Shown here: one piece after another, positions 2,395 to 62,097 of the stretch
Layout: each line of letters opens with the position of its first letter
Numbering within the stretch: position 1 is the first letter of the stretch
Assembly (NCBI GenBank): GCA_036494245.1
Contig: DASXOM010000051.1
Coordinates: 1,512-65,511 of the forward strand
Source: Gaiellaceae bacterium
GTDB lineage: Bacteria; Actinomycetota; Thermoleophilia; Gaiellales; Gaiellaceae
Reading direction: 5' to 3'
Length of the DNA stretch: 64,000 bases
Notes under the pieces: generated by a model
Database searches by the model: none
What the model saw: only the letters and a program-made list of their open reading frames with translations
Told to the model about the DNA's origin: nothing
Position numbers and translations under genes: made by a program

Positions 2395-2406
2395 CCCGCC
2401 GCGAAC

Positions 2407-6531: not shown

Positions 6532-6541
6532 GGCGCGAACG

Positions 6542-48277: not shown

Positions 48278-50179
48278 TTGCGGCCGTTGGAGGTGGCGCC
48301 AAGGATGATGCCGCAAGCTGCCCCTACACACGCTCCCGCCCCACCAAGGCGGAGAACGAGCACCCGGCCCGGCGGATTCAGGCTTCCTGCTGCGCTCCTG
48401 CTGCTCGCGATTCCGCTGGCCGTAGCCGCGTGGGGGCTCGGCGGCTACTCGGCGCAGCGCGAGCGGAACAATGCCGACAACCGGCTCATCGACAGCCTGA
48501 ACTCCGCCGGCGTCGTCTACCGCGGCGTGGTGTCGAAGGTCGACTCGACCGCCAGCCGGCTGGCCGGCGAGCGGCGCGTGCAACACGAGCTTCTCCACGG
48601 CGGCCACCGCACGGTTGTCTGGAGGATGCGAGTGAACAGACGCCACCCGCACGGCCAGGTCGCGCCCTGGCGCGGCTCGATCCCTGCGGCTGCGGCCGTC
48701 CGGCGGATCGACTTCCTGTCGAAAGGACACACGATCGGTCAGGTCGTCGTCTTTGTGCCGCTCGACCACCTGCTCGCCGGCTGGCTGACCTCGCACGTCG
48801 ATCTCGGTAGTCACCGGCAGATCGGCTTTGCCCGTGACGGCAGGCTCGTGGGCACAGAACGGACGGTGCGGATCGAGGCCGGCACGCTCGTCGGCCGAGC
48901 GGGCGACATCCGCGCAGATGGCAACGGCTACCGGACGGTTGCCGAGAATCTCGGCTCCGGCGCCAACGGGACCCGGCTCGCAGTCCTGGAGCCCAGCTCC
49001 TACATCGACTCGAGGGCGGATCTGGCGCGCTGGCGCGTGTTCGGTCTCGGCTTCGCCGTCATCCTCGCGTTGCTCGCCATGGCCTATGCGGTGTCCCCGT
49101 CGATCGCGCGGAGCCGGGTCTCGAGACAGGAGCGCGAGCGCGCCGAGCGTGTGCTCGCGCACGTCGGCGACGGCGTCTTCCTCGTCGACCACGACGGCGT
49201 GGTTCGTCTCTGGAACCAGGCGGCCGAGGCGATCACGGGCCTACGCTCGGACGCCGTCTGCGATCACACGGTCGCCGAGGCCGTGCCGGGCTGGCCGGCG
49301 GTCGCCGCCAGGGTTCCCGTGGCACGACGGCCGGGCGAGTTCGACGACGAGTCGAGCGCCGAGACCGTGCCGCTGGAGATCGACGGGCGGGAGATCTGGC
49401 TCTCGATCGCCGGCGTCACCCTGCCCGACGGCATCGTCTACGCCTTCCGCGACGTCACCCGCGAGCGGCGGCTCGAGGAGCTCCGCGCCCAGTTCGTGGC
49501 CACGATCTCGCACGAGCTGCGCACGCCGCTCGCGTCGTTGCACGGCGCCGCGATGACGCTGCTCGAGCGAGAGCACGAGCTGACCGACCAGACCCGGCAC
49601 GACCTCCTCGACATGATCGGCGCCCAGTCTAAGCGGCTCGCCGAGCTGGTGGAGGAGATCCTGCTCACCGGCCAGCTCGACAGCGGCTCCCTCCGGGTCG
49701 TCACCGAGCCCTTCGATCCAGAGGAGCTCGTGTGGTCGGTGGCCGCGGCGGCACGCCTCCGGGTGGGCGACGACACGACGATCGACGTGTCGATTCCAGC
49801 CGTGCTCCCGAAAGTGGTCGGCGATCCGGCGCGCACGCGCCAGGTGCTGACCAATCTCATGGACAACGCGATCAAGTACTCGCCAGAGGGCGGACGCATG
49901 CAGCTCGAGGTCGACGCCGGCGACGGCTACGCGCGTTTCACCGTCCGCGACGAGGGCCTGGGCATCCCGCTGAGCGAGCAGAAGCGGATCTTCGAGAAGT
50001 TCTATCGCCTCGATCCGGACCAGCGCCGCGGCATCGGGGGAAGCGGCCTGGGCCTCTACATCAGCCGGGAGCTCGTGCGCTCGATGAACGGCAGGATCTG
50101 GGTCGAGTCCGATCCGGGAAAGGGCGCGACCTTCACGTTCGAGCTGCCGCTGGCCGAGCGCGTCATCGTTCCGGCCTGA
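48278..50179 (+). CDS. Sensor histidine kinase (2 TM + extracytoplasmic domain + PAS + HisKA + HATPase_c)
   Basis: TTG at 48278, with an alternative ATG at 48305. PAS (VGDGVFLVDHDGVVRLWNQAAEAITG), H-box FVATISHELRTPL, N-box NLMDNAIKYSP, G-boxes DEGLGI and GSGLGLYI. Confidence 0.85.
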   Translation: MRPLEVAPRMMPQAAPTHAPAPPRRRTSTRPGGFRLPAALLLLAIPLAVAAWGLGGYSAQRERNNADNRLIDSLNSAGVVYRGVVSKVDSTASRLAGERRVQHELLHGGHRTVVWRMRVNRRHPHGQVAPWRGSIPAAAAVRRIDFLSKGHTIGQVVVFVPLDHLLAGWLTSHVDLGSHRQIGFARDGRLVGTERTVRIEAGTLVGRAGDIRADGNGYRTVAENLGSGANGTRLAVLEPSSYIDSRADLARWRVFGLGFAVILALLAMAYAVSPSIARSRVSRQERERAERVLAHVGDGVFLVDHDGVVRLWNQAAEAITGLRSDAVCDHTVAEAVPGWPAVAARVPVARRPGEFDDESSAETVPLEIDGREIWLSIAGVTLPDGIVYAFRDVTRERRLEELRAQFVATISHELRTPLASLHGAAMTLLEREHELTDQTRHDLLDMIGAQSKRLAELVEEILLTGQLDSGSLRVVTEPFDPEELVWSVAAAARLRVGDDTTIDVSIPAVLPKVVGDPARTRQVLTNLMDNAIKYSPEGGRMQLEVDAGDGYARFTVRDEGLGIPLSEQKRIFEKFYRLDPDQRRGIGGSGLGLYISRELVRSMNGRIWVESDPGKGATFTFELPLAERVIVPA

Positions 50180-51359
50180 CGGCGGGTACGAGCGCGTAGA
50201 TCCGGCCGAGCCCGACGAGGTAGAGCACGCCGTTGCCGGCCACCGCGGGCGAGTACTCGCCGTCCGGCCACTCGGCACGCAGGTGGCCGCTCGAGGCGAG
50301 TAGCCCGTACGTGCGGTGATCGAAGCTCGAGAAGTAGACGATGCCGTCGACGACGGAGGCGGCGCCGGAGATCGAGGCCTGCGCGTGATACGTCCAGCGG
50401 AGTGAGCCGTTGCCACCGTCGAGCGCGTAGAACGTGTGGTCGTACGAGCCGGCGAGGACGAGGCCGTGCCAGACCGCCGGTGAGGCGTAGACGTAGCTCC
50501 CGGCCCCGAAGCTCCAGAGGACGGCCCCGCTCCGGGCCGAGAACGCGTAGACGCGGCCGTCGAGCGAGCCGACGTAGACGCGTCCGGCGTTGACCGCTGC
50601 GGTCGAATAGAAGTTGCCGTAACCGGAGCTGCGCCAGACCAGCCGGCCGGTGCTCGCGCCGAGCGCGAGCATCTCGCCGGCGTAGTTGCCGATGTAGATC
50701 CGGCCGTAGGCGAACGAGGGCGACGCCTTGATCGGCGCCCCGGTGTCGAAGCGCCAACGCAGTCGTCCGGTGCGGGCGTCGAGGGCGTAGACGTATCCGT
50801 CCTGGTCGGCGACGTACACCGTGCCGTCCTCGACGAGCGGCGACGACTCCGACGGGCCGATCGCACGGCGCCAGCGGATGCGGCCCGTCTCGGGTGAGAG
50901 GGCTACGAGCTCACCGCCCTGCAACGTCGCGTTGCACTCGTGGTTGCCGATGAAGGTGGCGAAGAGGAGGTGGCCGGCGAGCGCCGGCGACGACCAGCCG
51001 CAGCCGTGGGAGGTGTAGCGCCAGCGGATCCGGCCGTTCGCGGAGTCGATCGAGTACAGCCGGCCGTCGAACGCCTCCTCGAAGACGCTGCCGTAGCCGA
51101 CGACCGGCGGGAACTCGAGCAGGTGCCTGCCGTGGAACGTCCAGAGTCGCCGGAACGGAGGCCGAAGCCCCCTCGCGGCGACTACCCGTCGGCGCGCGTT
51201 GTCCGCCCCGTACGTCGGCCACGGCAGCGCGGCGCTCTGCGGGGGCCGCTTCGTCACCGTCGCGAGGGGGACCGAGGGCGGCGGTATCAGCGTCGTCGAC
51301 CGCGGCCGGCTGCTCCCGCCCGAGGCGAGAGCGCCGGCCGCCGCGAGCAGCCCGATCAC
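50163..51359 (-). CDS. PQQ-like beta-propeller repeat protein
   Basis: Repeated blades of the type DG.VYA.D..TGR.RW... (for example DGYVYALDARTGRLRWRF, DGRVYAFSARSGAVLWSF). Confidence 0.8.
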   Translation of the reverse strand: MIGLLAAAGALASGGSSRPRSTTLIPPPSVPLATVTKRPPQSAALPWPTYGADNARRRVVAARGLRPPFRRLWTFHGRHLLEFPPVVGYGSVFEEAFDGRLYSIDSANGRIRWRYTSHGCGWSSPALAGHLLFATFIGNHECNATLQGGELVALSPETGRIRWRRAIGPSESSPLVEDGTVYVADQDGYVYALDARTGRLRWRFDTGAPIKASPSFAYGRIYIGNYAGEMLALGASTGRLVWRSSGYGNFYSTAAVNAGRVYVGSLDGRVYAFSARSGAVLWSFGAGSYVYASPAVWHGLVLAGSYDHTFYALDGGNGSLRWTYHAQASISGAASVVDGIVYFSSFDHRTYGLLASSGHLRAEWPDGEYSPAVAGNGVLYLVGLGRIYALVPAVRPER

Positions 51360-51369: not shown

Positions 51370-52680
51370 CTAGGTGTCGGTATCGCTCGTCTCTCCGCTC
51401 AGATGACTCCAGAGATTGGAGAAGAAGCGTGACAGGACGGGCCAGTGGGCGCTCGCCTCGAAGTTGATGGCGCCCGCGTCGAACACCGTCGAGTGGCCGC
51501 GCGTGTAGATGGTCATCTCGGCCGGCTTGCCTGGCCCGAGCTCGTTCGGGATCACGGCGAGGACGTGCGCGTGCGGGGGCGACGCGGAGCTCGGCTCATC
51601 GACCTCGATCCCGTAGTTGCCGACGCTGCTGCCGTCGTGCAGGCCCGTGCCCTCGAATAACCAGGGCGCGGCAGCGGTGTCGGTGATGCGGTAGGGCCGG
51701 TTCGGATAGTTCCCCTCGTTCCAGCCGGCGTACTGCGCGCCGACGAGCGTGGCCTCGGACCGACCGACGTTGCGCCACGGGATGCGGCCGGTCATCGTGT
51801 TCCCCGAAACTCTCACCTTGTAGAAGAAGTTGTTGGCCGACAGGAACGCGAGGTTGCCCCCGGCGTTGCGGTAGGCGGTGATCAGGTCGAAGGTGTGCGA
51901 GGTGACGTACTCCTCGTGGCCGGCGAAGACGATGAGCCGATAGCGGCTGAGCTGCCCGGAGCTCGAGAGGCGCTCGAGGTCGTCGTCGGAGACGAAGTCC
52001 GCCTGGTAGCCGCTGTGCCAGTACCAGCGCAGGAAACCGACGTCGAAGCGCTGGAACTGCTCCGGCAGCCCGGCCGGCACCCGCTTGCCGTTCACCCTGG
52101 AGGCGGCGAACGGATGGGTCAGGTCGATGAAGTGGACGGCAGGGTCGAGGTACCAGCTGTCGCCGTCGAAGTCGTCGTACGCGTGCCACGTGTTGGTCGG
52201 CTCCACGACGAGCACCGGCTCGCTGCCGAGCCGGCTCGGGCGGAGGATGAAGGGGGCGTAGTCGGCTTGAGCGCCCCAGCTCAGGCGGGCGACGTACGCC
52301 CCGCTCGGCCAGTCCGAGCCGAGGCGGACGTGTACAAGCCAGCGTCCGCTTCCCGCCGGGCGAAGCACCTGTTGCGGTGCGGTTACCGGCTTGCCGAACG
52401 TGTGCCTGTCCCACCCGGGGGCGGCTGCCGGGCCCGGTGTGCCCGAAGCGCCGGCCTGGAAGATCTGGAGCGTGGCACGGTTCGTGTCGCCCCCGCCGAC
52501 GGCCAGAACGGCGACCTGACCGGGCGCGTAGCTGCGGGCCAGGAAGCCTGCCAGCAGCGGCGAAGTGCCCGCCTGGCCGGTGCCCAGCACGAACCCGAAC
52601 ACGACTGCGACGGCAGCGACTACGGCTACGCCGGAGGCGAGGCTTGCGGCCGGACGGAGGCGGTACGGCGAGACGTTCAT
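51370..52680 (-). CDS. Membrane-anchored N,N-dimethylformamidase beta-subunit-like domain protein
   Basis: N-terminal TM (VAVVAAVAVVFGFVL). PVLVVEPTNTWHAYDDFDG, AGGNLAFLSANNFFYKVRV and GIEVDE resemble the DMFase large-subunit-like family. Assignment is from memory of the family pattern. Confidence 0.55.
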   Translation of the reverse strand: MNVSPYRLRPAASLASGVAVVAAVAVVFGFVLGTGQAGTSPLLAGFLARSYAPGQVAVLAVGGGDTNRATLQIFQAGASGTPGPAAAPGWDRHTFGKPVTAPQQVLRPAGSGRWLVHVRLGSDWPSGAYVARLSWGAQADYAPFILRPSRLGSEPVLVVEPTNTWHAYDDFDGDSWYLDPAVHFIDLTHPFAASRVNGKRVPAGLPEQFQRFDVGFLRWYWHSGYQADFVSDDDLERLSSSGQLSRYRLIVFAGHEEYVTSHTFDLITAYRNAGGNLAFLSANNFFYKVRVSGNTMTGRIPWRNVGRSEATLVGAQYAGWNEGNYPNRPYRITDTAAAPWLFEGTGLHDGSSVGNYGIEVDEPSSASPPHAHVLAVIPNELGPGKPAEMTIYTRGHSTVFDAGAINFEASAHWPVLSRFFSNLWSHLSGETSDTDT

Positions 52681-52711
52681 GGCGCCACCGTCGGCGCCGT
52701 CGCCAACCGCG

Positions 52712-52733
52712 CTCTAATGACCTGCTAACGGCC
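52712..52733. promoter_or_regulatory. Imperfect 11-nt tandem direct repeat (CTCTAATGACC / TGCTAACGGCC)
   Basis: AT-rich patch in the 94-bp divergent intergenic region upstream of the SARP-SIR2 gene. A weaker third phased unit, CGCCAACCGCG, lies at 52701-52711. Confidence 0.3.
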
Positions 52734-52774
52734 GTTGGGAAGCGGCATCCGCACGGTGCTACAACCTTCGCGCG

Positions 52775-54379
52775 TTGGTCGAATTCGCCATCCTCGGACC
52801 GCTCGAGGCTCAGCAAGACGGAGAGCCGATCCAGCTCGGCGGCCCGAAACAGCGGGCGCTGCTGGCGATGCTGCTCCTCGAAGCGGGCCGGGTCGTCTCC
52901 CTCGACCGTCTGCTCGAGGCGCTGTGGGAGGACAACCCACCCGCGACGGCCACGGCGTCGCTCCAGAACTTCGTCGCCCAGCTGAGAAAGGCGCTCGGCC
53001 CGGATGCGATCGAGACGCGGCCGCCGGGCTATCTCGTGCGGATCGGGCCCGAGCAGCTCGACCTGGCCCGCGTCCGCAGCCTCGTCGACGCTGCCCGCGC
53101 GAGCGAGCCCGTGCGGCGGGCGGCGCTGCTCGACGAGGCGCTCGCCCTGTGGCAAGGCGAGGCGCTGGCGGAGTTCCGCTACGAGGCGTTCGCGCGCGAG
53201 GAGATCGCGCGGCTCGAAGAGTTCCACCTCACGCTGGTCGAGGAGCGGGCCGAGGCGAAGCTTGCGATCGGAGCGCACGCGGAGGTCGTAAGCGAGCTCG
53301 AGAGGCTCGCCGGCACGCACCCGCTGCGCGAACGACTACGCGCCCAGCTCATGCTCGCTCTCTACCGCTCCGGCCGGCAGGCGCAGGCGCTCGAGGCCTA
53401 TCGCGAGGGCCGCGAGCTGCTCGTCGAGGAGCTCGGCCTGGAGCCCAGCCCGCTGCTACGCGGCGTGCATGCGTCGATTCTCCGCCAGGAGACGTTCGCG
53501 GTCGACCGCGGCGCGATCCCCGAGGTAGAGCACTTCGAGGAGGTCGCCGCGGCCCTGCTCGCCGGCAAGGTCACGGTCGTGGTCGGCTCCGACTCGGAAC
53601 CGCTCGCCTCGGAGCTCGCGCGGCGGTTCGGCCTCGACGCGGACACCCGGGAGCTCGCGCGCGTCTCGCAGGCCGTCGCGGTGCTCAACGGTTCGGGGCC
53701 TCTGTACGACACGCTTCACGCGCTCGTCGAGGGAGACGGGGAGCCGTCTCCCGTGCACCGTTTCCTCGCTCGGCTGCCGGCCCTGCTGCGCGACCGGGAG
53801 ACCGGGCAGCCGCTGCTCGTCACGACCGGCTACGAGCTCGCGCTGGAGCGGGCGCTCGAGGAGCTCGAGGAGCCGTACGAGACGGTCTGCTACCTCGCCG
53901 CCGGAGAGATGCGCGGCAGCTTCTGTCACATCGCCCCGAGCGGTGTGGCGAACGTGATCGAGCGGCCGAACGCATACACCGGCGGGCTCGCCCTCGACGA
54001 GCGCACGGTGCTACTCCACCTGCAGGGGCGAATCGACCGGTCGACCGGACGTGCCTGGGAGAGCTTTGCCGTCACGGAGGACGACTTCATCCACTACGGC
54101 GACGTCGCGCGCCGCCTGCCCGTGTCGCTCGCCGCGCGCCTGCGTCGTACCCATCTGCTGCTGCTCGGGTACACACTCTCGACCTGGACGCTGCGCGTCG
54201 TCCTCGAGCGCTTCTGGGGCAGTGAGCCGCTGCCGTACCGCTCCTGGTCGGTGCATCCCGGGCCGCAGCCGCTCGAGCGGGAGTTCTGGCGGCGCCGCGA
54301 CGTCGAGGTGGTCGACCTGGCGCCCGCGGCGTACGTCGCCGAGCTCGAGCGGGCGCTGGAGAAGGCGGCGGTCTCCTGA
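52775..54379 (+). CDS. SARP (wHTH + BTAD) regulator fused to a SIR2-like (SIR2_2-type) domain
   Basis: TTG start. VEFAILGPLEA, LW.GEALAEF, ALYRSGRQAQALEAYREGRELLVEELGLEPSPLL. The C-terminal about 285 aa carries the SIR2_2 order of motifs: VVVGSDS, PVHRFLARL, LLVTTGYELALERAL, LLHLQGRI, FAVTEDDF, HLLLLGYTLSTW. Confidence 0.8.
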   Translation: MVEFAILGPLEAQQDGEPIQLGGPKQRALLAMLLLEAGRVVSLDRLLEALWEDNPPATATASLQNFVAQLRKALGPDAIETRPPGYLVRIGPEQLDLARVRSLVDAARASEPVRRAALLDEALALWQGEALAEFRYEAFAREEIARLEEFHLTLVEERAEAKLAIGAHAEVVSELERLAGTHPLRERLRAQLMLALYRSGRQAQALEAYREGRELLVEELGLEPSPLLRGVHASILRQETFAVDRGAIPEVEHFEEVAAALLAGKVTVVVGSDSEPLASELARRFGLDADTRELARVSQAVAVLNGSGPLYDTLHALVEGDGEPSPVHRFLARLPALLRDRETGQPLLVTTGYELALERALEELEEPYETVCYLAAGEMRGSFCHIAPSGVANVIERPNAYTGGLALDERTVLLHLQGRIDRSTGRAWESFAVTEDDFIHYGDVARRLPVSLAARLRRTHLLLLGYTLSTWTLRVVLERFWGSEPLPYRSWSVHPGPQPLEREFWRRRDVEVVDLAPAAYVAELERALEKAAVS

Positions 54380-57300
54380 GCGAAGTCCCGCAGAGCCCGT
54401 ACAAGGGCCTCGCCTCGTTCGAGGACTCCGAGCTCGACGCCCTTCTCTTCTTCGGCCGTGAGCGTGAGATCGCGGCGGTGGCGGCAAACGTGCTGGCGAA
54501 CCGGCTCACCATCCTCTACGGGCCGAGCGGGGTCGGCAAGAGCTCGCTCCTCGGTGCCGGCGTTGCGCGCAGGCTGCGGGAGCTGAGCGGCGCGCCGGTC
54601 GTCGTGCACGACGCGTGGGCCGAGGATCCCGCGGCTCGCATGATGGCTTCGGTGGAAGCGGAGTGCGGCGAGCTCGGTGCCACAGCCGGTCTCGTCGACA
54701 CGGTCGCAGCGGCGGCTCAGCAGAGCGGCGAGCTCCACCTCCTGCTCGACAACTTCGAGGAGTACGTCCTCTACCACGGTCTCGAAGGGCCTCTGAGCGA
54801 CTCGCTGCCCGAGCTCCTGCGCCGGCCCGGGCTGCGCGTCAACGTCTTGCTCGCGCTGCGCGACGACGCACTCGCGGATCTCGACGAGTTCGCCGGCCGG
54901 ATTCCCGACCTGTTCTCGAACCTGCTTCGCCTCGACCTGCTCGATCGGGAGGCCGGCAAGGCGGCGATCCTCGGCCCGCTCGACCGCTACAGCGAGCTGA
55001 CCGGAGAGCAGTTCACCGCGGAAGACGCGCTCGTCGAGGCCGTGCTCGACGAGGCGTCGACCGACACCGGCGTCGAGGCGCCGTACCTCCAGCTCGTGCT
55101 CGAGCGCCTGTGGGAGCGCGAGCGGGAGCTGGGCTCGCACGAGTTGCGCCTCGCGACCCTCCGAGCGATCGGCGGGGCGCGTGCCGTGGTGCGCGAGCAC
55201 GTGCGGGGAGCGCTCGATGCCTTGCCGCTCGCCGAGCAGGAGGCGGCGGCGCGGGTCGTGCGGCAGCTCGTGACGCCCTCGGGACGCAAGGTCTCGCACG
55301 AGCCGTCCGACCTCGCCGAGTACGCCCACGTCGAGGACAACGAGCTGCGGCGCCTGCTCGACCGGCTCGGGCGCGAGCGAATCGTCCGCGGCGTCAACGG
55401 CATGCAGGGCGCGCCGACGCGTTACGAGATCTTCCACGACGTCCTCGGACCGCCCATCCTGGCGTGGCAGGCCGAGCACCAGCTGCAGCGCGAGCGGATT
55501 CGCGGGCGGCAGCAGCGCCGCCGCCTGCTTGCGATCATCGGCGTGAGTCTCGTTGCCCTGGCGATCGTCGCCGGCGTCGCCATCTTCGCCCTCGTCCAGC
55601 GCAGCAACGCGCGGACGCAGGCACGGCGCGCGCATGGCGGCGAGCTCGCCGGCCGCGCGCTCGCGGACATACCGACCAATCCGCAGGTCAGCGTCCAGCT
55701 GGCGCTGCAGGCCGCGGACCTCGACCCGGGACGGCAGACCGCCGGCGTTCTCCGCTCGAGCCTCGCCGCGATGCGCGAGACACGGGTCCTGCGTCTCGGC
55801 GGGAACATCGTCGTGGCCTCGTTCCAACCGAGGGGACGCTTGTTGCTCGTAGGGAGCAACAACGGCCGGGTTGCGACCTACGACACAGCCGGCCGGCGGC
55901 TCAGGTCTCACAGCATCCCCCGACTTGCCATGGCGGCCTGGAGCCCCGACGGCCGCTTCTTCGCGACGGGCACCGATGGCGGCCAAGTCGCCGTCTGGCT
56001 GCCGCACCGCATGAAGCCGCTGCACACCTTGGCGACAGGCTCGCCCATCACGGCTCTGTCCTTCAGCTCGAAGACGTTGCTCGTGGGCAGCGGTACGCAC
56101 GTCCACGTGCTTAATCTCGCAACCGGGCATGTGCGGGCAATCGACCTGGGCAGCGGTGTCCTAGCAAGCGCTCTCGATCCGAACGGGGACGTGTTCGCCG
56201 TCGCCACTCGGCTTGGGAAGTCGACGAGCGCGGAGATCCTCAGCGCCCACACGGGTCGCGTGATCAGGCGTCTGCCCGAGGCCGGAATCCGCTCGTTCGC
56301 CTTCAGCCCGGACGGGAGGCTGCTCGCGAGCGGCAGCCGCGACCGGACAGCGCGGATCTGGAACGCTCGCACGGGCCGGCTCCTCCACGTGCTACAGCAC
56401 CAGGGCTACGTCCTGGACGAGCAGTTCTCCCGTGACGGCCGCTCGCTCGTGACCGCGAGCCAGGACGGCGCCGCCTACGTCTGGGACGTTGTCACCGGCC
56501 GGCGCGAGCTCCTCCTCGTCGGCGCGACCGGAGCGATCAACGCAGCCGCCTTCAGCCCGGACGGAAGTCGGATCGCCACCGCCTCCGACGATCTGCTCGC
56601 GCGCATCTACTACGCCGCGGACGGCCGCCTGCTCGCCCCACTCGCGGGACACGGCAAGGCAGTGACGAGCGTGGAGTTCGACCCGAGCGGGCGCACGATC
56701 GTCACCGGCTCGAGCGATGGCACGGCACGGCTCTGGGAAGCACTGCCGCTCGGGACTCTCGTGCCGATCGACAGACGCAGCTCGCCGGTGGATGCGCTCT
56801 GGGCGGGTGAGCACGCGGTCAGTGTCGCGGGACGACGTGCGCGGATCCTCACGACGTCCGGTCGCCTCGTGAAGCAGCTGACGATGCCCTCGCCAATCGT
56901 TGCCACTGCGGTCTCCGGGAGCTCGATCTTCCTGGCCGACCGCGCCAGCAACTTGCTCTCGGATCGTCGCGGGATCGTGAAGCTGACCCCCGGCGTCGGC
57001 GCGACCTCGCTCGCTCCGAGGCCGGGCGGGTCGGTTCTCCTCGGCCGAGGGGACACCGTCGGCTGGTCGAACGGGCACCCGGTCCTCGTTCGGGCGGGCG
57101 GGCGAGTCCTCGGGCTCTCGACCGGCGGCGGGCGGTTCCTCGTCCGGCTACCGAGCTCGGTCCGCGTCTACACCGACGGCGGCAGCCTCGTCAGCACGAT
57201 CCACACGACGGCGCAGCACGCAGTCCTCTCGCCGGGCGGCCTCGGCGTGGCAACGACCAAGGGCACCATCGCGCAGCTCTGGGACGCCTCGACCGGCCAG

Positions 57301-57729
57301 CTCCTCCATACGCTCAAAGGGCATACGCAACTCATCAACGACGCCGAGTATTCGCCGAGCGGTCGCGAGCTGGTCACGGTCAGCTCCGATCACAGCGGTC
57401 GCATCTGGGCTACCGGGACCGGACACGTGCTCCACGTCCTCCTGGGCCACTTCTTCGCGGTCAACACCGGCAGCTTCAGCCCCGACGGCCGCTGGATCGT
57501 GACAACGAGCCAGTTCACCGCCGGTCTCTGGAACGCACGCACGGGCCAGCTCCTCTTCTACCTCGGCCGCGACACCAAGCCGCTCATCGGGGCGAGCTTC
57601 AGCCCGAGCCGCAACTGGGTCCTCACCAGCAGCGAGGACGGGACGGCTCGCATCTACCACTGCGTGATCTGCCAGCCGCTGACCGGGCTGGAGACCACTG
57701 CGGAAGCGCGTCTCCGCGCGCTGCGTTAG
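54376..57729 (+). CDS. STAND-type P-loop NTPase (nSTAND/NACHT-like) - TM helix - WD40 repeat protein
   Basis: The conserved N-terminus SPYKGLASFEDSELDALLFFGRE lies upstream of the first canonical start (GTG at 54478). Start proposed at CTG 54376, overlapping the upstream TGA. Walker A GPSGVGKSS, Walker B LHLLLDNFEE, TM LLAIIGVSLVALAIVAGVAIFALV, many WD40 blades (FSPDGR..ASGS.D.TARIWN). Confidence 0.8.
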   Translation: MSEVPQSPYKGLASFEDSELDALLFFGREREIAAVAANVLANRLTILYGPSGVGKSSLLGAGVARRLRELSGAPVVVHDAWAEDPAARMMASVEAECGELGATAGLVDTVAAAAQQSGELHLLLDNFEEYVLYHGLEGPLSDSLPELLRRPGLRVNVLLALRDDALADLDEFAGRIPDLFSNLLRLDLLDREAGKAAILGPLDRYSELTGEQFTAEDALVEAVLDEASTDTGVEAPYLQLVLERLWERERELGSHELRLATLRAIGGARAVVREHVRGALDALPLAEQEAAARVVRQLVTPSGRKVSHEPSDLAEYAHVEDNELRRLLDRLGRERIVRGVNGMQGAPTRYEIFHDVLGPPILAWQAEHQLQRERIRGRQQRRRLLAIIGVSLVALAIVAGVAIFALVQRSNARTQARRAHGGELAGRALADIPTNPQVSVQLALQAADLDPGRQTAGVLRSSLAAMRETRVLRLGGNIVVASFQPRGRLLLVGSNNGRVATYDTAGRRLRSHSIPRLAMAAWSPDGRFFATGTDGGQVAVWLPHRMKPLHTLATGSPITALSFSSKTLLVGSGTHVHVLNLATGHVRAIDLGSGVLASALDPNGDVFAVATRLGKSTSAEILSAHTGRVIRRLPEAGIRSFAFSPDGRLLASGSRDRTARIWNARTGRLLHVLQHQGYVLDEQFSRDGRSLVTASQDGAAYVWDVVTGRRELLLVGATGAINAAAFSPDGSRIATASDDLLARIYYAADGRLLAPLAGHGKAVTSVEFDPSGRTIVTGSSDGTARLWEALPLGTLVPIDRRSSPVDALWAGEHAVSVAGRRARILTTSGRLVKQLTMPSPIVATAVSGSSIFLADRASNLLSDRRGIVKLTPGVGATSLAPRPGGSVLLGRGDTVGWSNGHPVLVRAGGRVLGLSTGGGRFLVRLPSSVRVYTDGGSLVSTIHTTAQHAVLSPGGLGVATTKGTIAQLWDASTGQLLHTLKGHTQLINDAEYSPSGRELVTVSSDHSGRIWATGTGHVLHVLLGHFFAVNTGSFSPDGRWIVTTSQFTAGLWNARTGQLLFYLGRDTKPLIGASFSPSRNWVLTSSEDGTARIYHCVICQPLTGLETTAEARLRALR

Positions 57730-58214
57730 CCGTCCACCGACGGAGGAGCGCACCGCGGCTCGTGCCGCGCGGCGAGCACGAGCAGCAGTGTGTGCAGCTG
57801 CTCTCGCTGCTCGGCGTCGAGCGGCGCGAGGAACTCGTCTTCGAGGCGCCGCGCGAGCGCGCGGAGCTTCGCGAGCGTGCGCTTGCCGTCGGTTGTGATC
57901 CGGACGATCTGCCGGCGCCGGTCCTCGGGATCGCGCTTGCGCTCGACGAGCGCCTGCTCCTCGAGCTCGTCGAGGAGCCCGACGAGCGTGCCTCGGTCGT
58001 AACCGAGCGCGTCCGCGATCTCGGCCTGCGTCTCGGGAGCGCTTCCCTCGAGCAGGGCGAGGATCGCGTGGTGGTACGGGCTGAGCCCGAAGCGTTCGTA
58101 CTCGTCGAGCGACCGGCTCTTCGCGGCAAAGCCGAGCCGCTTGAGCAGGAAGAGGCTCGAGGCGACGAGCTCCGCGGGCATACCGGTGGTCTGGGTTTTC
58201 AAATCAGTCTTCAT
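57726..58214 (-). CDS. MarR family transcriptional regulator
   Basis: ATG at 58212-58214, with an alternative ATG at 58224-58226. wHTH QAEIADALGYDRGTLVGLLDELEEQALVERKRDPEDRRRQIVRIT. Confidence 0.85.
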   Translation of the reverse strand: MKTDLKTQTTGMPAELVASSLFLLKRLGFAAKSRSLDEYERFGLSPYHHAILALLEGSAPETQAEIADALGYDRGTLVGLLDELEEQALVERKRDPEDRRRQIVRITTDGKRTLAKLRALARRLEDEFLAPLDAEQREQLHTLLLVLAARHEPRCAPPSVDG

Positions 58215-58270
58215 ATCGATTCCCATCTCGTGGAATAGTGTAGCGCGGCCAAGCGTTCCCCTCATGTATA

Positions 58271-58285
58271 GTTGGTAGTACCAAC
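58271..58285. promoter_or_regulatory. Perfect 15-bp palindrome GTTGGTA-g-TACCAAC (MarR operator candidate)
   Basis: Lies in the MarR/MFS divergent intergenic region, 16 nt upstream of the MFS TTG start, just before the GGAGGA SD. Confidence 0.5.
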
Positions 58286-58300
58286 GATTGGAGGATCTGC

Positions 58301-59767
58301 TTGCTTCCCACGCTTCATCCCCTTGCTTCCCGGCGGCGCTGGAGTGCACTTGCTCTTATCGTCACCGCTCAGTTCATGGTCATTCTCGACGTGGCGATCG
58401 TGAACGTTGCGCTCCCGTCGATCAAGTCGGACCTCGGGTTCTCGGCCACGGGGATCCAGTGGGTGATCACCGCGTACGCCATCCTCTTCGGCGGGACGCT
58501 GCTGCTCGGCGGCCGCCTCGCCGACCTGCTCGGCCGACGGCGCATGTTCGTCGCGGGCCTCGCTCTTTTTGCCGCGAGCTCCCTGCTCTGCGGCTTCGCC
58601 TGGTCGTCGGGCTCGCTCGTCGCGTTCCGTGCGCTGCAAGGGCTGGGAGGCGCGCTGCTCGCTCCGGCTGCGCTCTCGCTCCTGATGACGACGTTCGCCG
58701 AAGGCCCTGAGCGCAACCGCGCGCTCGGGATCTACGGCGCCGCTTCGGGTAGCGGCGCGGCGGCAGGCGTCCTGCTCGGCGGCGTGATCACCTCCTATCT
58801 CGGCTGGTCGTGGATCTTCTTCGTCAACGTCCCGGTCGGCCTCGCCGCGATCGCGCTCACGCCCTTCCTGCTGCGCGACAGCCGCGCGGAGCTGCCGCAT
58901 CGCCACTTCGACCTGGCCGGCGCCGCCTCGGTCACGAGCGGCTTGATGCTGTTCGTCTACGGGCTGACTCGGGCGGCAACGGACGGCTGGAGCTCGCCGG
59001 TCACGCTGGGGCTGCTCGGTGGAGCCGTGGCGCTCATCGCGTCGTTCGTCGCGATCGAGCTGCACTCACGCTCGCCGCTGCTGCCGCTGCGGATCTTCCG
59101 CCTGCGCGCGCTCTCGGGCGCGAACGCGACGATGGCGCTCGTCGGGGCCGTGACCTTCTCGGAGTTCTTCGTCCTTACGCTCTACGCGCAGGACGTCCTC
59201 CACTACTCGGCGGTTCAGACCGGCGTCGCGTTCGTCGCGTTCGCCCTTTCCGTCGTCGTGGCCTCGAACCTCGCGCAAGCCGTGGTCGGCCGGATCGGCG
59301 TCCGGGCGACCCTCATGATCGGCCTCGCGCTCGCCGTCCTCTCTCTCGGCCTGCTCACGCAGCTGCCGGTGGACGGCCACTACTTCTGGGATCTCTTCCC
59401 GGCCTTCGTGCTCGGCGGGACAGGCCTGGGCTTCTCCTTCGTGCCGGTCACGATCGCAAGCCTGACCGGTGTGGAGCGTGCCGACGCCGGTGTCGCCTCC
59501 GGCCTCGTGAACACGAGCCGCCAGATCGGCGGCGCCGTCGGGCTCGCGGCGATCAGCACCATCGCGGCGAGCGCGGCATCGAGCTACGCCCATGCTCACG
59601 GCGTCTCGGCCGCGAGCGCGGCCGCAACGGTCAGCGGTTTCCAGACGTCCTTCGTCGTCCTCGGCGGCCTGCTCGTCGCGGCATTCGTCGTCGCGGCGGT
59701 CTTCCTCCGGCCGGCGCGCGAGCGCGTCGAGGAGATCGACGCGGTCGAGCTGCAGGAGGCCGCATGA
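58301..59767 (+). CDS. MFS transporter, DHA2 (EmrB/QacA, 14-TMS) family
   Basis: LIVTAQFMVILDVAIVNVALPSI, motif A-like GRLADLLGRRRMF, about 14 hydrophobic segments. Confidence 0.9.
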   Translation: MLPTLHPLASRRRWSALALIVTAQFMVILDVAIVNVALPSIKSDLGFSATGIQWVITAYAILFGGTLLLGGRLADLLGRRRMFVAGLALFAASSLLCGFAWSSGSLVAFRALQGLGGALLAPAALSLLMTTFAEGPERNRALGIYGAASGSGAAAGVLLGGVITSYLGWSWIFFVNVPVGLAAIALTPFLLRDSRAELPHRHFDLAGAASVTSGLMLFVYGLTRAATDGWSSPVTLGLLGGAVALIASFVAIELHSRSPLLPLRIFRLRALSGANATMALVGAVTFSEFFVLTLYAQDVLHYSAVQTGVAFVAFALSVVVASNLAQAVVGRIGVRATLMIGLALAVLSLGLLTQLPVDGHYFWDLFPAFVLGGTGLGFSFVPVTIASLTGVERADAGVASGLVNTSRQIGGAVGLAAISTIAASAASSYAHAHGVSAASAAATVSGFQTSFVVLGGLLVAAFVVAAVFLRPARERVEEIDAVELQEAA

Positions 59768-59952: not shown

Positions 59953-61332
59953 ATGCGGGGAACTGATGAGCATGAGCTCAAGCTCGACGCTCCTGCCGGC
60001 TTTCGGCTGCCGCCGCTCGGCGGCCGCCCGCTTGCGCCGCGGGTCTTCACCTCCGTCTACTACGACGTGCCCGGCGAGTCGCTGGCGGCGGTGGGCATCA
60101 CGCTGCGGCGCCGCACCGAGGACGGCCACGGCGTCTGGCAGCTCAAGCTCCCTGCCGACGACTCGCGGCTCGAGCTCGAGGCTGATGGAGCGCCGGGGCA
60201 GCCGCCCGAGGAGCTGCTCGCCCTCCTTCACGCTCACTTGCGCCGCGGCCCGCTCGAGCGCGTAGCGGAGCTGCGAACGCGACGGAGCGGCGAGCTCGTC
60301 GCGCGCAACGGCACGACCGCCGAGGTGACCGCGGACGAGGTCACGGTGCTCGACTCCCCGGAGGAGTGCGACCAGTTCGTCGAGGTCGAGATCGAGCTTC
60401 GAGACGGCAGCCCCGACGACCTCGACGAGATCGCTGACGAGCTCGTCTCGGCGGGCGCAGAACAGGGGCACGGGCTGCCCAAGCTGTTCCGTGCGCTCGG
60501 CCGCCTGCCTGCGTATGGGCCGGCTCCTCGTTCGTTCGAGGAGCTGCGGGGCCGCTTGCGCGAGCAGCTGCGCGAGATCGAGCGACATGACCCGGGCACA
60601 CGTCTCGGCCGCGATCCCGAGAGCCTCCACGACATGCGCGTCGGCGTCCGCCGCCTGCGCGCCCTGCTCCGCGCGGGTAGCGAGCTCGTCGCGACCGACA
60701 CCGCGGAGCTCGACGGGCGGCTGAAGCAGCTGGGCCAGGTGCTCGGCGAGGTCCGCGACCTCGACGTGCTGCTCGCGCGGCTCGAAGCCGAGGCGGCTGA
60801 GCTCGGGGGAGAGGACGCGAGGCGCGCCGGGCCGCTGCTCGCTGTGCTGCGCACCGAGCGCTCCTGTAGCCGTAGCCGCCTGCTCGCAGCCCTGCGCTCG
60901 GACGAGTACCTGGCCCTCCTCGACGACACCGCCCGCACGCTCGACGAGCTCGAGCCGAGCGGCTCCACGGTAACGCTCGACGAGCTCGTCGGCGAGGCGT
61001 CCGCCAAGGTGCGCAAGGCCGTTCGGAAGCTGTCGGACGAGCCGACGAACGACGAGCTGCACGCGGTGCGGAAGAAGGGCAAGCGAGCGAGGTACGCGGC
61101 CGAGCTTGCGGGCAGGAAGAAGCTCGTGAAGCGCGCCAAGAAGTTGCAGGACGTCCTCGGGGACCATCAGGACGCTGTCGTCGCCGCGAGGCGGCTGCGG
61201 GCACTCGCCGCGGGGTCGACCCCCGAGCTTGCGCTCGTCGCCGGGCGCCTCGTCGAGCGCGAGGAGGAGCGTCGCCTGGAGGCGAGAGCGGCGTGGCCGA
61301 AGGCGTGGCAGAAGTTCCGCAAGGCGATCTGA
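59953..61332 (+). CDS. CYTH and CHAD domain-containing protein
   Basis: CYTH N-terminus HELKLDAP, VYYDVPGESLAAVGITLRRR, VWQLKLP. CHAD helices HDMRVGVRRLRALLR and ELHAVRKKGKRARYAAE. Confidence 0.9.
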   Translation: MRGTDEHELKLDAPAGFRLPPLGGRPLAPRVFTSVYYDVPGESLAAVGITLRRRTEDGHGVWQLKLPADDSRLELEADGAPGQPPEELLALLHAHLRRGPLERVAELRTRRSGELVARNGTTAEVTADEVTVLDSPEECDQFVEVEIELRDGSPDDLDEIADELVSAGAEQGHGLPKLFRALGRLPAYGPAPRSFEELRGRLREQLREIERHDPGTRLGRDPESLHDMRVGVRRLRALLRAGSELVATDTAELDGRLKQLGQVLGEVRDLDVLLARLEAEAAELGGEDARRAGPLLAVLRTERSCSRSRLLAALRSDEYLALLDDTARTLDELEPSGSTVTLDELVGEASAKVRKAVRKLSDEPTNDELHAVRKKGKRARYAAELAGRKKLVKRAKKLQDVLGDHQDAVVAARRLRALAAGSTPELALVAGRLVEREEERRLEARAAWPKAWQKFRKAI

Positions 61333-61700
61333 CGGTCGTTCGCGCCGCGGGCGGACTCGTCGTGCGCGACGGCGAGGTCCTGCTCGTGCACCGGCCGAAG
61401 TACGATGACTGGAGTTTCCCGAAGGGCAAGTGTGACCCGGGCGAGTCCGACGAGGCCTGTGCGCTGCGCGAGGTCGAGGAGGAGACGGGGTTGCGCTGCG
61501 AGCTCCTGGAGGAGATCGGCGAGACGAGCTACGTCGACGGCAGGGGCCGGCCGAAGGTCGTCCGCTACTGGCGGATGCGTGCCCTGGACGGGGAGTTCGC
61601 CCCCGACGACGAGGTGGACGAGATCCGCTGGGAGACGCCGGAGCGCGCCGCGGCCGTGCTCAGCTGGTCGCGAGACCTCCCACTGCTGGAGCGGTTGTGA
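61293..61700 (+). CDS. NUDIX hydrolase
   Basis: Nudix box GKCDPGESDEACALREVEEETGL. Start is GTG at 61293 (40-nt overlap with the CHAD gene) or CTG at 61329 (CTGA overlap). Confidence 0.85.
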   Translation: MAEGVAEVPQGDLTVVRAAGGLVVRDGEVLLVHRPKYDDWSFPKGKCDPGESDEACALREVEEETGLRCELLEEIGETSYVDGRGRPKVVRYWRMRALDGEFAPDDEVDEIRWETPERAAAVLSWSRDLPLLERL

Positions 61701-62095
61701 CGAGCGTCCTGCTGCGCCATGCCTCGGCCGGCGACCGCCACGACTTCGAGCACGACGACCGCCGCCGTCCCCTCGACAAGAGAGGCGGGCGCCAGTCGGG
61801 CGAGCTCGTCGAGCTGCTGCGGCCGTTCGGGGTGCGGCGCATCGTCTCGAGCCCCTATGTCCGCTGCGTCCAGACGGTAGAGCCGCTGGCCGCCGCGCTC
61901 GGGGTGGAGCTCGAGGAGGACGTCCGTCTAGCGGAAGGCGCAGGGGCGGCCGCAGCCGCCTTGCTTCGGGAGGACGGCGTCGTCTGCTGCACGCACGGTG
62001 ACATCGTCGAGGCGCTCGTGGGCCGCGGCTTGAAGAAGGGTGCCGCTTTCGTTCTCGAGGACGGCGAGGTCGTGCGCGAGCTTCCCGCGCCGTAG
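61697..62095 (+). CDS. Histidine phosphatase family protein (SixA-like)
   Basis: GTG overlaps the Nudix stop (GTGA). LLRHASAG catalytic-His motif, SSPYVRCVQT, CCTHGD. Confidence 0.75.
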   Translation: MTSVLLRHASAGDRHDFEHDDRRRPLDKRGGRQSGELVELLRPFGVRRIVSSPYVRCVQTVEPLAAALGVELEEDVRLAEGAGAAAAALLREDGVVCCTHGDIVEALVGRGLKKGAAFVLEDGEVVRELPAP

Positions 62096-62097
62096 AG

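Follow-up and report, generated by a model that had tools for sequence, protein, structure and literature searches.

The window, by which we mean the whole 64,000-nt stretch of Gaiellaceae DNA that was analysed, carries two overlapping plus-strand genes, A and B, a divergent minus-strand unit, and a set of phased repeats in the interval between them. The features are, in order of position:

50163..51359, minus strand: second gene of the divergent unit, encoding a 398-aa PQQ_2/BamB-like beta-propeller protein whose N-terminus is hydrophobic (Pfam PQQ_2, E = 7e-52)
51370..52680, minus strand: DMFA2_C-family protein of 436 aa with an N-terminal hydrophobic signal/anchor (Pfam, E = 2.2e-53)
52703..52738, plus strand: candidate SARP operator of three direct repeats in exact 11-nt phasing (CCAACCG at 52703, CTAATGA at 52714, CTAACGG at 52725)
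52732-52738: inverted copy CCGTTGG within the candidate operator, after the CTAACGG repeat
52757..52765, plus strand: TGCTACAAC, resembling an extended -10 element, 9 nt ahead of the gene A start
52775-54379, plus strand: gene A, 534 aa from a TTG start, a SARP (wHTH plus BTAD) fused to a degenerate SIR2-like domain
52829..53020, plus strand: OmpR-type winged-helix DNA-binding domain of gene A, aa 19-82 (Pfam Trans_reg_C, 43.4 bits against a cut-off of 26.2)
53057..53482, plus strand: BTAD helical domain of gene A, aa 95-236 (Pfam BTAD, 139.8 bits, E = 1.1e-40, full-length model match)
53558..54376, plus strand: SIR2_2-fold domain of gene A, about aa 262-534, with substituted active-site positions (Pfam, profile against PDB, AF2, Foldseek)
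54376..57729, plus strand: gene B, 1117 aa, an nSTAND1 NTPase with a single TM helix and WD40 propellers (open frame, Pfam)
54397..55527, plus strand: nSTAND1 NTPase module of gene B, aa 8-384 (Pfam PF20703, 149 bits, E = 3.2e-43, model positions 1-364 of 379)
Within the nSTAND1 module, plus strand: N-terminal motif SPYKGL...FFGRE, aa 7-29, of the PYxGL...FFGRE type
54520-54546, plus strand: Walker A, GPSGVGKSS, aa 49-57
54733-54762, plus strand: Walker B, LHLLLDNFEE, aa 120-129
55525..55596, plus strand: single TM helix of gene B, aa 384-407 (hydropathy scan), with the more positive flank, RERIRGRQQRRR, on its N-side
55597..57726, plus strand: WD40 beta-propeller(s) of gene B, about 710 aa (Pfam WD40, E = 4e-60, 8 stretches)

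Gene A begins as a SARP. The Pfam matches place an N-terminal OmpR-type winged helix ahead of a BTAD domain, as the original prediction had it. The NCBIfam AfsR model aligns to aa 3-285 with 216 bits, far under its 1430-bit cut-off, and Pfam detects neither NB-ARC nor TPR in the gene A protein; the nSTAND1 NTPase is a separate protein. The prediction that a SIR2_2-type tail takes the place of NB-ARC and TPR is borne out by three methods, each of which makes the fold assignment significant. Pfam SIR2_2 matches aa 347-512 with 42.5 bits against a cut-off of 24.5. A profile compared with the PDB retrieves KomC (7e-12), DSR2 (1e-10) and ThsA (4e-9). The AF2 model of aa 245-534 has a pLDDT of 89.5 and an intact Rossmann fold, and Foldseek searches with this model recover the defence SIR2 NADases KomBC, ThsA, DSR2, Avs5 and SIR2-HerA at E values of 1e-11 to 1e-9, with TM scores of 0.6-0.68 and a probability of 1.0.

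The fold is kept and the active site is changed. Every SIR2 motif string quoted in the original prediction occurs in gene A in the order given, but the catalytic-type residues within the strings are substituted (TTGYE for TTNYD and HLQG for KxHG). The signature residues N, D, K and H are replaced by G352, E354, H415 and Q417, so gene A lacks both the catalytic Asn of TTNYD and the His of KxHG. A census of the SIR2 family finds Asn in 89/115, Asp in 111/115, Lys in 108/115 and His in 96/115 members, where the window protein has G, E, H and Q. The printed profile alignment pairs the KxHG His with KomC H146, and its position in the matched range pairs it with DSR2 H171; deposited structures carry mutations at these residues (H146N and H171A). 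The Gly-rich dinucleotide-binding loop (GAGxS/N) is also missing; the Rossmann loop reads VVVGSDS, with GSD for GAG where the family has FLGAGVN..., and after it some 25 residues of the family sequence are deleted. The four substitutions are fixed in 106-115 of 115 gene A orthologues, with H415 present in all 115 and Q417 in 113. NADase activity is unlikely in gene A because these signature-residue changes are fixed in about 115 orthologues, and the assignment of an NADase effector role to the domain is not upheld. From its sequence the domain is probably an inactive copy of an immune NAD-destroying domain. H415 may be a relocated catalytic His, since it is invariant and lies two residues ahead of Q417 on the same strand.

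Asn and His are both kept in 52/59 stand-alone proteins of the SIR2 subfamily. Asn is lost in seven of nine SARP-fusion representatives and in both XRE-HTH fusions checked (P0137 and P0156). Among 80 paralogous SARP-SIR2 genes, N, D, K and H are all kept in 18 and the only change is Asn to Ser in 41, so catalysis may persist in sister modules of the gene A protein.

Gene B has the predicted parts. The Pfam match, the N-terminal motif, both Walker motifs and a C-terminal repeat region identify an nSTAND1 NTPase, the hydropathy scan finds one TM helix, and the WD40 region, with at least eight repeats, comes after this helix. The helix is kept at the same place in 69/79 gene B homologues, and the others are truncated. 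A topology with the N-terminus inside, the nSTAND1 module in the cytoplasm and the WD40 region outside it is predicted because the N-side flank of the helix is the more positive one. This placement draws on hydropathy and charge only, and WD40 export would need a signal-anchor located 384 aa from the N-terminus. The WD40 region is the fastest-diverging part of the pair: its identity is 47-52% in one orthologous locus (L004), compared with 69-73% for parts of gene A and 64% for the nSTAND1 module.

The gene A stop and gene B start codons overlap. Gene B had been described as about 1117 aa starting at this overlap, and the length and position stand, but the codon at 54376 is a non-canonical CTG (cCTGa, overlapping the TGA stop). 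In close relatives the codon at this very position is GTG or ATG, giving a GTGA or ATGA overlap with the gene A stop. Starting instead at GTG 54478, the first canonical codon in frame, would cut off the N-terminal nSTAND1 motif, which is conserved. For this reason, and because relatives start at the 54376 position, the reading of 1117 aa is correct, and it requires a CTG start or reinitiation.

Comparative data confirm that the two genes are coupled and conserved neighbors. In 80 related, paralogous Thermoleophilia loci the SARP-SIR2 fusion is present in 80/80, with an nSTAND1 gene directly downstream in 79/80. The pair is present in all orthologues examined, and orthologous loci L001-L004 keep it down to 71% identity while their outer flanks differ. 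In 17/90 SIR2 family representatives nSTAND1 and this SIR2 domain are joined in one protein, a fusion of the Rosetta-stone type. We infer that A and B make physical contact and that the signal passes from B to A.

SARP is only one of the many heads carried by a constant SIR2 module whose partner is always nSTAND1. The gene A-type SIR2 module is always C-terminal, and its heads are none, TIR, CHAT, Pkinase, cyclase, HTH_3 (XRE-HTH), caspase, EAD7 or SARP. An nSTAND1 gene lies next to the module in all seven non-SARP contexts that were examined. The family would comprise 1970 clusters at 50% identity, and it has a cultured member in Nonomuraea gerenzanensis. Head swapping and the constant nSTAND1 partner are absent from the earlier reading of the locus. 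The literature search found no description of this two-gene SIR2 and nSTAND1 family or of the SARP-SIR2/nSTAND1 layout, and the partners of canonical SIR2 relatives have no match in PADLOC-DB 2.0. The statement that no characterized system has this layout agrees with the lack of both a PADLOC model and a paper describing one.

SARP targets are known to bear direct repeats 11 or 22 bp apart (PMC10936776), and repeats with this spacing lie upstream of gene A. The pattern CTAAYS-N5-CTAAYS occurs once in the window, compared with 0.01 expected. The CTAAYS site is also present in the four orthologous loci and, in 27 paralogue loci, ahead of the module. Across 73 upstream regions, exact 6-mer self-matches number 121 at a lag of 11 and at most 11 at neighboring lags, and 63 exact 7-mer phased repeats were counted compared with 4.1 ± 2.6 in shuffles. 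The lag-11 peak, the enrichment, the uniqueness in the window and the conservation point to the 11-bp-phased CTAAYS repeats as a candidate operator in the divergent promoter, and the repeats could instead belong to another regulator. Canonically the 3' repeat of a SARP target lies 8 bp from the -10 element; at that distance from the repeats here no -10 element was recognizable on either strand, TGCTACAAC lying 25 nt downstream of CTAACGG, and a sigma-70 scan found no promoter. TGnTA(C/G)AA occurs within 40 nt of the start in 40/75 homologous loci and only 47 times over about 1 Mb of locus sequence. The position of TGCTACAAC suggests a leaderless or near-leaderless gene A mRNA.

The DMFA2_C protein is a likely regulatory target or partner of the module. 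Its gene adjoins the module in the four orthologous loci and in 29/80 paralogue loci. Homologues of the PQQ propeller were found by tblastn in 15 fetched loci, the four orthologous ones among them, and flank clustering placed a provisional 'PQQ?' family in 25/80 paralogue loci. A divergent gene starts within 400 nt in 55/73 loci and encodes Peptidase_M23 in 40, DMFA2_C in 14 and a PQQ propeller in 1. The DMFA2_C and PQQ proteins of the window and the M23 cluster representative have hydrophobic N-terminal signals. Neither the operator-like repeats nor the divergent exported-protein genes were mentioned in the original prediction.

Our proposal, made with moderate confidence, is that a SIR2/STAND conflict module supplied the parts of this locus and that it now works as a transmembrane transcription switch running from STAND to SARP. 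The mechanism that we infer, with its WD40 topology, ligand and controlled promoters, would run as follows. Gene B would be a membrane-anchored STAND ATPase with a cytoplasmic nSTAND1 module and WD40 propellers that face the cell envelope as the sensor. Ligand sensing would lead the NTPase to exchange nucleotide and oligomerize, and gene A would dock on it through the C-terminal SIR2-fold domain. This domain would serve in adaptor or assembly functions and not in catalysis, because the fold and the family-specific surface are kept and the NADase active site is lost. An assembly role fits with the helical filaments that several of the KomC-, ThsA- and DSR2-type SIR2 enzymes form according to their PDB titles. 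Docking or clustering would release or juxtapose the SARP heads, which would then bind the phased CTAAYS repeats and activate the module itself, the divergent exported-protein genes, or both. The divergent targets would be the DMFA2_C and PQQ propeller genes here and M23 peptidases in most paralogous loci. A fuller version is advanced only tentatively: an NLR-like (STAND) receptor with an outward WD40 sensor would relay an extracellular or envelope cue through a dead SIR2 docking domain to a SARP that controls secreted cell-wall hydrolases, and the parent pair would represent a large, undescribed family.

The original prediction compared the pair to AfsR logic split over two genes, and this analogy is reasonable. 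AfsR, a large SARP of Streptomyces coelicolor, likewise combines a SARP head with a STAND ATPase that has a repeat sensor, and its STAND module gates the SARP head via ATP binding (PMC10936776). Its target DNA carries 11-bp-phased direct repeats, as found upstream of gene A (PMC10936776). AfsR holds SARP, NB-ARC/NOD and TPR in one chain, whereas here the STAND protein is separate and of the nSTAND1 clade, gene B is membrane-anchored with a WD40 sensor predicted outside the cell, and a SIR2-fold domain connects head and ATPase. The gene order resembles that of Mycobacterium tuberculosis EmbR (SARP plus FHA adaptor), whose gene precedes that of the membrane kinase PknH in a shared operon (PMC9239209). 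Both loci place a SARP with a C-terminal adaptor directly upstream of a single-pass membrane sensor that has a cytoplasmic signaling domain. The adaptor here is SIR2-fold and not FHA, the partner is a STAND NTPase and not a Ser/Thr kinase, and no phosphorylation is implied; the likeness is an analogy, with homology confined to the SARP part.

Gene A might instead be an NAD- or nucleotide-linked transcription factor in which the degenerate SIR2 domain binds NAD+, ADP-ribose or a related compound and gates the SARP, with B as a second input or scaffold. No region of the gene A protein is more conserved than its SIR2 part (84% mean identity in 115 orthologues), the near-invariance of H415 and Q417 and the intact Rossmann fold fit a bound ligand, and the conservation of the four substitutions themselves suggests a remodeled rather than a decayed pocket. 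PDB titles also place the ThsA SIR2 enzyme under the control of a nucleotide signal. We consider this explanation unlikely: the dinucleotide loop is GSD with the 25-residue deletion, G271 varies among orthologues, and the constant adjacency or fusion to nSTAND1, whatever the head, is left unexplained.

Abortive infection or defence is less probable still. On this account B senses an invader, the SIR2 domain of A depletes NAD+, and the SARP head does no more than regulate its own operon or anchor the protein to DNA. ThsA, DSR2, KomC (Kongming), SIR2-HerA and Avs5 share the SIR2_2 fold and family-level sequence similarity with gene A, the closest solved relatives of its SIR2 part are all defence NADases, and Avs5 (SIR2-STAND) also pairs a SIR2 domain with a STAND NTPase. 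Stand-alone, TIR- and CHAT-headed members lie beside nSTAND1 in mobile or defence-like contexts (transposases, DruA, caspase and toxin-antitoxin genes), the definition of nSTAND1 comes from predicted conflict systems (PMC8195603), and some paralogous SARP-SIR2 genes retain all four signature residues. These residues are replaced and fixed in the gene A orthologue group, however, where the GAG loop is degenerate, and the domain forms the C-terminal part of a transcription factor rather than the N-terminal part of a STAND protein. No PADLOC-DB 2.0 model (Thoeris, DSR, SIR2-HerA, SIR2-STAND and others) matches the pair; gene A has only a weak TPR-model match, on its SARP part, and gene B matches only mad8 (E = 0.011). 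The context is not a defence island. The G+C content and composition are native, gene A is found at 70-96% identity across many Gaiellaceae assemblies in a vertical-looking pattern, the setting is chromosomal with one paralogue group beside uvrB, and no plasmid or phage homologues were found. The predicted location of the sensor is outside the cytoplasm, which sets gene B apart from known antiphage STANDs. These properties disfavor the originally suggested defence system with a DNA-binding head.

The nSTAND1 conflict systems (Kaur, Burroughs, Iyer, Aravind 2020/2021) share the NTPase clade, a constant core with a swappable effector head, and WD40 or FGE sensors with the gene A-type family. Their effectors are EAD-coupled or fused, whereas the head here is a DNA-binding domain and the locus has its own operator-like repeats. 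Within the searchable text of those papers, no SIR2_2 module is described as a constant nSTAND1 partner, and no SARP or XRE head.

That an orphan SARP and an unrelated membrane WD40 protein are ordinary neighbors with an incidental SIR2 likeness is scarcely credible, as the codon overlap, the 79/80 synteny, the same-protein fusions, the adjacency in every other head class examined and the three-method fold assignment already contradict it.

The locus has the look of an immune-type gene pair that was put to new use as a switch for the transcription of secreted-protein genes nearby. If the proposed switch is correct, it documents a route from an immune-type STAND/SIR2 module to an ordinary regulatory pathway and provides a clear case of a SIR2 NADase turned pseudoenzyme. 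A transmembrane STAND with an outside sensor and an output in trans to a SARP would be a wiring undescribed for AfsR, MalT or the antiviral STANDs. The broad two-gene SIR2_2 and nSTAND1 family with swappable heads has been missed by defence-system catalogues such as PADLOC 2.0. For the Gaiellaceae, a little-studied soil lineage, the analysis supplies a predicted operator, CTAAYS phased at 11 bp, together with a candidate regulon whose products are exported M23 peptidases and DMFA2_C proteins.

Gene A, a SARP fused to an SIR2_2-fold domain, and gene B, which follows it, contain these features:

52775-54379, + strand: gene A, 534 aa, start codon TTG
Gene A aa 19-82: Trans_reg_C (Pfam)
Gene A aa 95-236: BTAD (Pfam)
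Gene A aa 347-512: SIR2_2 (Pfam, 42.5 bits; gathering threshold 24.5)
54376-57729, + strand: gene B, 1117 aa in frame
Gene B aa 8-384: nSTAND1 (Pfam, E = 3e-43)
Gene B aa 49-57: Walker A, GPSGVGKSS
Gene B aa 120-129: Walker B, LHLLLDNFEE
Gene B aa 384-407: single hydrophobic helix
Gene B, ~710 aa: WD40 repeats

The Pfam matches and motif positions bear out the domain description in the original prediction with one correction, the start codon of gene B. Gene A is a SARP family member by its domains, and gene B is an nSTAND1 member. The G+C content of the window is ~0.70, and the region of interest matches the surrounding composition. Homologues whose source is named assign the window to Gaiellaceae (Thermoleophilia). 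Gene B had been predicted to start 1 nt before the gene A stop. The position, 54376, and the 1117-aa frame stand; the codon at 54376-54378, which overlaps the gene A TGA, is a non-canonical CTG. The same overlap reads GTGA in the closest relatives (orthologous loci L001 and L003) and ATGA in the 71%-identical orthologue L004. The next canonical start, at 54478, would delete the conserved SPYKGL...FFGRE N-terminus, which argues that the 1117-aa reading is right. The long form would then need a non-canonical start or reinitiation. The CTG itself could be a rare start codon or mark termination-reinitiation; alternatively, this assembly may carry a point difference or a mistake here. The frame of 1117 codons is otherwise intact.

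A single-sequence search of the PDB with the C-terminal domain of gene A was marginal (best E = 0.13), so a profile was needed. Relatives of gene A aa 245-534 were drawn from a 50%-identity representative library (1970 clusters at E ≤ 1e-3), and a profile of 20 sequences from these relatives matched KomC (8zsf, 7e-12), DSR2 (8k98, 1e-10) and ThsA (6lhx, 4e-9). The AF2 model of the domain, built with the profile alignment, was confident (pLDDT 89.5), and the top Foldseek matches were all defence SIR2 enzymes: KomBC, BcThsA, DSR2, SeThsA (TM 0.68), the EfAvs5 SIR2-STAND and SIR2-HerA. Pfam, the profile search of the PDB, and AF2 with Foldseek thus show that the proposed SIR2-like domain is real.

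A role as an NADase effector is made unlikely by its active site. The family consensus, from 115 aligned domains, contains TTNYD and KxHG; of the 115, 89 have the signature Asn, 111 the Asp, 108 the Lys and 96 the His. The KxHG His lines up with KomC H146 in the profile alignment and, by position within the matched range, with DSR2 H171; several deposited PDB structures carry H146N (KomC) or H171A (DSR2). ThsA activity requires the Asn and the His, as is known from work on Thoeris. The window protein has G352, E354, H415 and Q417 at the four positions, and its degenerate Gly-rich loop is GSD followed by a ~25-residue deletion. Gene A orthologues at 70-96% identity retain G352 in 108/115, E354 in 106/115, H415 in 115/115 and Q417 in 113/115 cases, and the SIR2 part is the most conserved segment of gene A (84% mean identity over the 115 orthologues). 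Fixation of the substitutions within the most conserved segment argues against random decay. Gene A belongs to the SIR2_2 family by fold and sequence, yet lacks the catalytic residues. We conclude that the domain is functional but very probably no NADase, and gene A should not be filed as one. H415 lies two residues ahead of Q417 on the same strand, so it may be a relocated catalytic His.

The SIR2 module belongs to a larger family. A Pfam scan of 90 representatives identified SIR2_2 in 88. The best-matching stretch is C-terminal in the listed relatives, and the N-terminal part, or head, is variable: nSTAND1 in the same protein (17 representatives), BTAD/SARP (16), TIR_2 (11), CHAT (8), Pkinase (4), HTH_31/HTH_3 (4), EAD7 (3), class III cyclase (3) or caspase (1). 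Many members are headless proteins of ~320 aa. An nSTAND1 gene lies directly downstream in every non-SARP context retrieved.

nSTAND1 partners of the SIR2 module in non-SARP contexts
Kinase head: nSTAND1 with a 4-nt overlap, N-terminus SPYKGLMPF...FFGRE
TIR head: nSTAND1-TM-WD40, 1426 aa
CHAT head: adjacent nSTAND1 gene
XRE-HTH head: nSTAND1-TM-WD40
Stand-alone SIR2: nSTAND1-FGE-sulfatase; neighbours are transposases, DruA and a caspase
Stand-alone SIR2_2 (330 aa; locus L091, 4885-9237): followed by an nSTAND1-HEAT-SIR2_2 fusion, 1078 aa
Stand-alone SIR2: a pair in cultured Nonomuraea gerenzanensis

The SIR2 module is therefore the invariant nSTAND1 partner, and SARP is one head of many. The L091 pair lies among BrnT/BrnA, HicB and IS110 genes, and the fusion's own SIR2 copy has its His changed to Asn; this arrangement hints at homotypic SIR2-SIR2 recruitment by the STAND protein. 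In N. gerenzanensis (NZ_LT559118.1, ~7.49 Mb) a canonical stand-alone SIR2 occupies 5039-5998 (HMM E = 4e-53) and an nSTAND1 gene follows directly from 6001 onward, where the record is unannotated. Plasmid and phage collections contained no match to the SIR2 C-terminal domain and no relative of the whole module; for the nSTAND1 part the sole match was a Nonomuraea replicon. Equating the constant SIR2 module with Aravind's EACC1 was rejected, since EACC1 denotes a small TM domain whose partner is a caspase. Several variants also occur. In a TIR-SIR2 locus (L086), the SIR2/nSTAND1-WD40 pair comes after a second TIR_2 gene (215 aa), and a 105-aa ORF with no family match (3923-4240) lies between the two genes of the pair. 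Two 737-aa proteins 88-89% identical to gene A (P0014, P0019) have an extra class III adenylate/guanylate cyclase before the SARP-SIR2 body, and P0144 is a cyclase-SIR2 protein without SARP.

Catalytic-type residues track architecture across these proteins. Both Asn and His are kept in 52/59 stand-alone SIR2 proteins; Asn is lost in 7/9 SARP-fusion representatives and in both XRE-HTH fusions checked (P0137, P0156), and Asn or His is lost in 6/9 nSTAND1-SIR2 fusions. Among 80 paralogous SARP-SIR2 genes the four positions read SDKH in 41 and NDKH in 18, the remainder having other combinations. The most degenerate state of all is that of the window's orthologue group.

The original prediction required A and B to be conserved neighbours, and comparative data agree. 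A scan of genome contigs found 569 relatives; its pattern ended in [YH], and the window's own orthologues (...EDDF) were thereby missed. The best 80 of the 569 loci are paralogue groups at ~50% identity, all from Gaiellaceae, Thermoleophilia or unclassified Actinomycetota MAGs. In tblastn searches of these 80, the SARP region was fused upstream of SIR2 in every locus, nSTAND1 followed immediately in 79 (the exception is a contig end), and nearly all ran on into WD40. The conserved B N-terminal motif begins 11-41 nt past the stop of A in most loci, and in 69/79 homologues one TM helix comes after the NTPase, the remainder being truncated or frameshifted. The module is multi-copy in some Thermoleophilia genomes: two loci (L028 and L029) come from one MAG, and a single contig (L056) carries copies at 5-4662 and 6248-10383. 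The true orthologues (L001-L003, 96% identity; L004, 71%) keep A, B and two divergent upstream genes, and their outer flanks differ. Between the window and L004, identity is 69-73% for parts of A, 64% for nSTAND1 and 47-52% for the WD40 region; by this comparison the propellers evolve fastest, yet are far from hypervariable. The domain identities, the genomic coupling of A and B, and the family-wide SIR2-nSTAND1 partnership, same-chain fusions included, are established.

A generic repeat search of the window's intergenic region alone gave nothing convincing, and a signal emerged only from comparing 56-73 homologous upstream regions. Exact 7-mers recurred at 10-12 or 21-23 nt 63 times, compared to 4.1 ± 2.6 in shuffles. 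When 150 nt in front of each of 73 loci were compared, the lag spectrum of exact 6-mers rose to a sharp peak of 121 matches at 11 nt against ≤11 at adjacent lags, with a second peak of 21 matches at 22 nt; coding controls gave codon periodicity only. The core is CTAAC(G/C) or CTAATG, and a common arrangement is a pair of copies on one strand with a second pair after it on the opposite strand. The promoter region of the window contains:

52703: CCAACCG
52714: CTAATGA
52725: CTAACGG
52732: CCGTTGG, inverted
52757-52765: TGnTA(C/G)AA element, TGCTACAAC, ~10 nt before the gene A start

CTAAYS-N5-CTAAYS occurs once in the 64-kb window (52714-52730; 0.01 expected), at the same place in L001-L004, and before the module in 27 paralogue loci. 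Published work characterises SARP target sites by direct repeats spaced at 11 or 22 bp (PMC10936776). On neither strand could the repeats in the window be fitted to the canonical distance of 8 bp from a -10 element. TGnTA(C/G)AA lies ~10 nt before the start codon in 40/75 homologous loci, with the variant TCTAAGGT in 10 more, and hardly occurs in the rest of the ~1 Mb of locus DNA. It resembles an extended -10 element for an mRNA with a short leader or none. The gene A codon following it is the TTG. A sigma-70 scan of 51-59 kb returned no promoters, and terminator-like sites there were at chance level.

The genes around the module, and a second SARP gene, are:

50163-51359, - strand: PQQ_2/BamB-like propeller gene, divergent, upstream of A
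51370-52680, - strand: DMFA2_C-family gene, divergent, upstream of A, with a hydrophobic N-terminal signal or anchor
57726-58349, - strand: MarR gene, with an MFS transporter also present before the next cluster
59953-64000: polyphosphate-related cluster (CYTH-CHAD, NUDIX, His_Phos_1, Ppx-GppA, polyphosphate kinase), syntenic with L001 17182-21605
28444-30066, + strand: second SARP gene, 540 aa, Trans_reg_C and BTAD

A divergent gene starts within 400 nt in 55 of the 73 paralogue loci with enough upstream sequence. Peptidase_M23 (with Big_13) is divergent in 40 of the 73 and is often duplicated or triplicated in tandem; the divergent gene is DMFA2_C in 14 and PQQ in 1. One paralogue group adjoins uvrB. 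Antisense "shadow" ORF clusters, which naive clustering of the flanks produced in this high-GC DNA, were discarded after Pfam checks. L001 shares the polyphosphate cluster and the more distant L004 does not, which makes a link between the cluster and the module improbable. The head of the second SARP gene is 52% identical to that of gene A. This gene was rejected as an SIR2 fusion: its ~290-aa C-terminal region is not SIR2-like (hhalign probability 0.4) and has no Pfam match, and no nSTAND1/module partner lies downstream.

Fixed non-catalytic residues, a conserved TM helix and phased repeats specific to the promoter region are likewise established. We propose that a membrane STAND sensor signals through an SIR2-fold adaptor to a SARP at the repeats, a chain to which, taken whole, we give about an even chance. 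Gene B would sit in the membrane with its ATPase inside the cell and its propellers in the wall zone: the nucleotide that the ATPase requires is cytoplasmic, and of the two flanks of the helix the N-side one, RERIRGRQQRRR, is more positive. Actinobacterial sensor kinases of the PknB/PknD type have this topology. Ligand binding would drive STAND activation, and gene A would be recruited or released via its SIR2-fold domain, now an adaptor or assembly module; PDB titles describe helical filaments of defence SIR2 domains. Finally, SARP heads would bind the phased repeats, switching on the module itself, the divergent genes for exported proteins, or both.

An unlikely variant, compatible with this model, is that the remodelled SIR2 pocket senses a small molecule. 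Such a pocket would account for the conservation of the substitutions, but leaves the invariant nSTAND1 partnership and the degenerate dinucleotide loop unexplained. We consider it quite improbable that the pair is an NAD-depleting defence system with a DNA-binding head: family ancestry fits this view, as do the mobile, defence-like surroundings in which stand-alone members lie, whereas the residue losses in the window's orthologue group, the chromosomal, vertical pattern and the predicted external sensor do not. That A and B are mere neighbours is contradicted by the comparative data and can hardly be sustained.

The closest functional precedents are EmbR-PknH, whose SARP carries a C-terminal FHA adaptor and has its gene immediately before that of the membrane sensor kinase (PMC9239209), and AfsR, whose SARP head is gated through ATP by a STAND module. 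The locus is not AfsR-type because its proteins are split, its NTPase falls in another clade and gene A scores well short of the NCBIfam AfsR cut-off; nor is it Avs5-type, as SIR2 is not N-terminal on the STAND protein. No PADLOC 2.0 system matched, and the original prediction likewise knew of no characterised system of such a layout. Open-access text on SIR2+BTAD, SIR2+STAND+SARP, nSTAND1 and SIR2+STAND NTPase+WD40 yielded no account of this architecture, whether as a fusion of SARP with SIR2 or as a pairing of SIR2_2 with nSTAND1; such an absence does not prove novelty. Every component is already known, and so is the general logic (STAND gating SARP; SIR2 paired with STAND), so the locus varies known kinds and is not categorically new. 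Its interest lies in the idea of a pseudoenzyme adaptor, in a STAND sensor that would face outward, and in the size of the undescribed parent family of SIR2 + nSTAND1 pairs, for which N. gerenzanensis could be a tractable strain.
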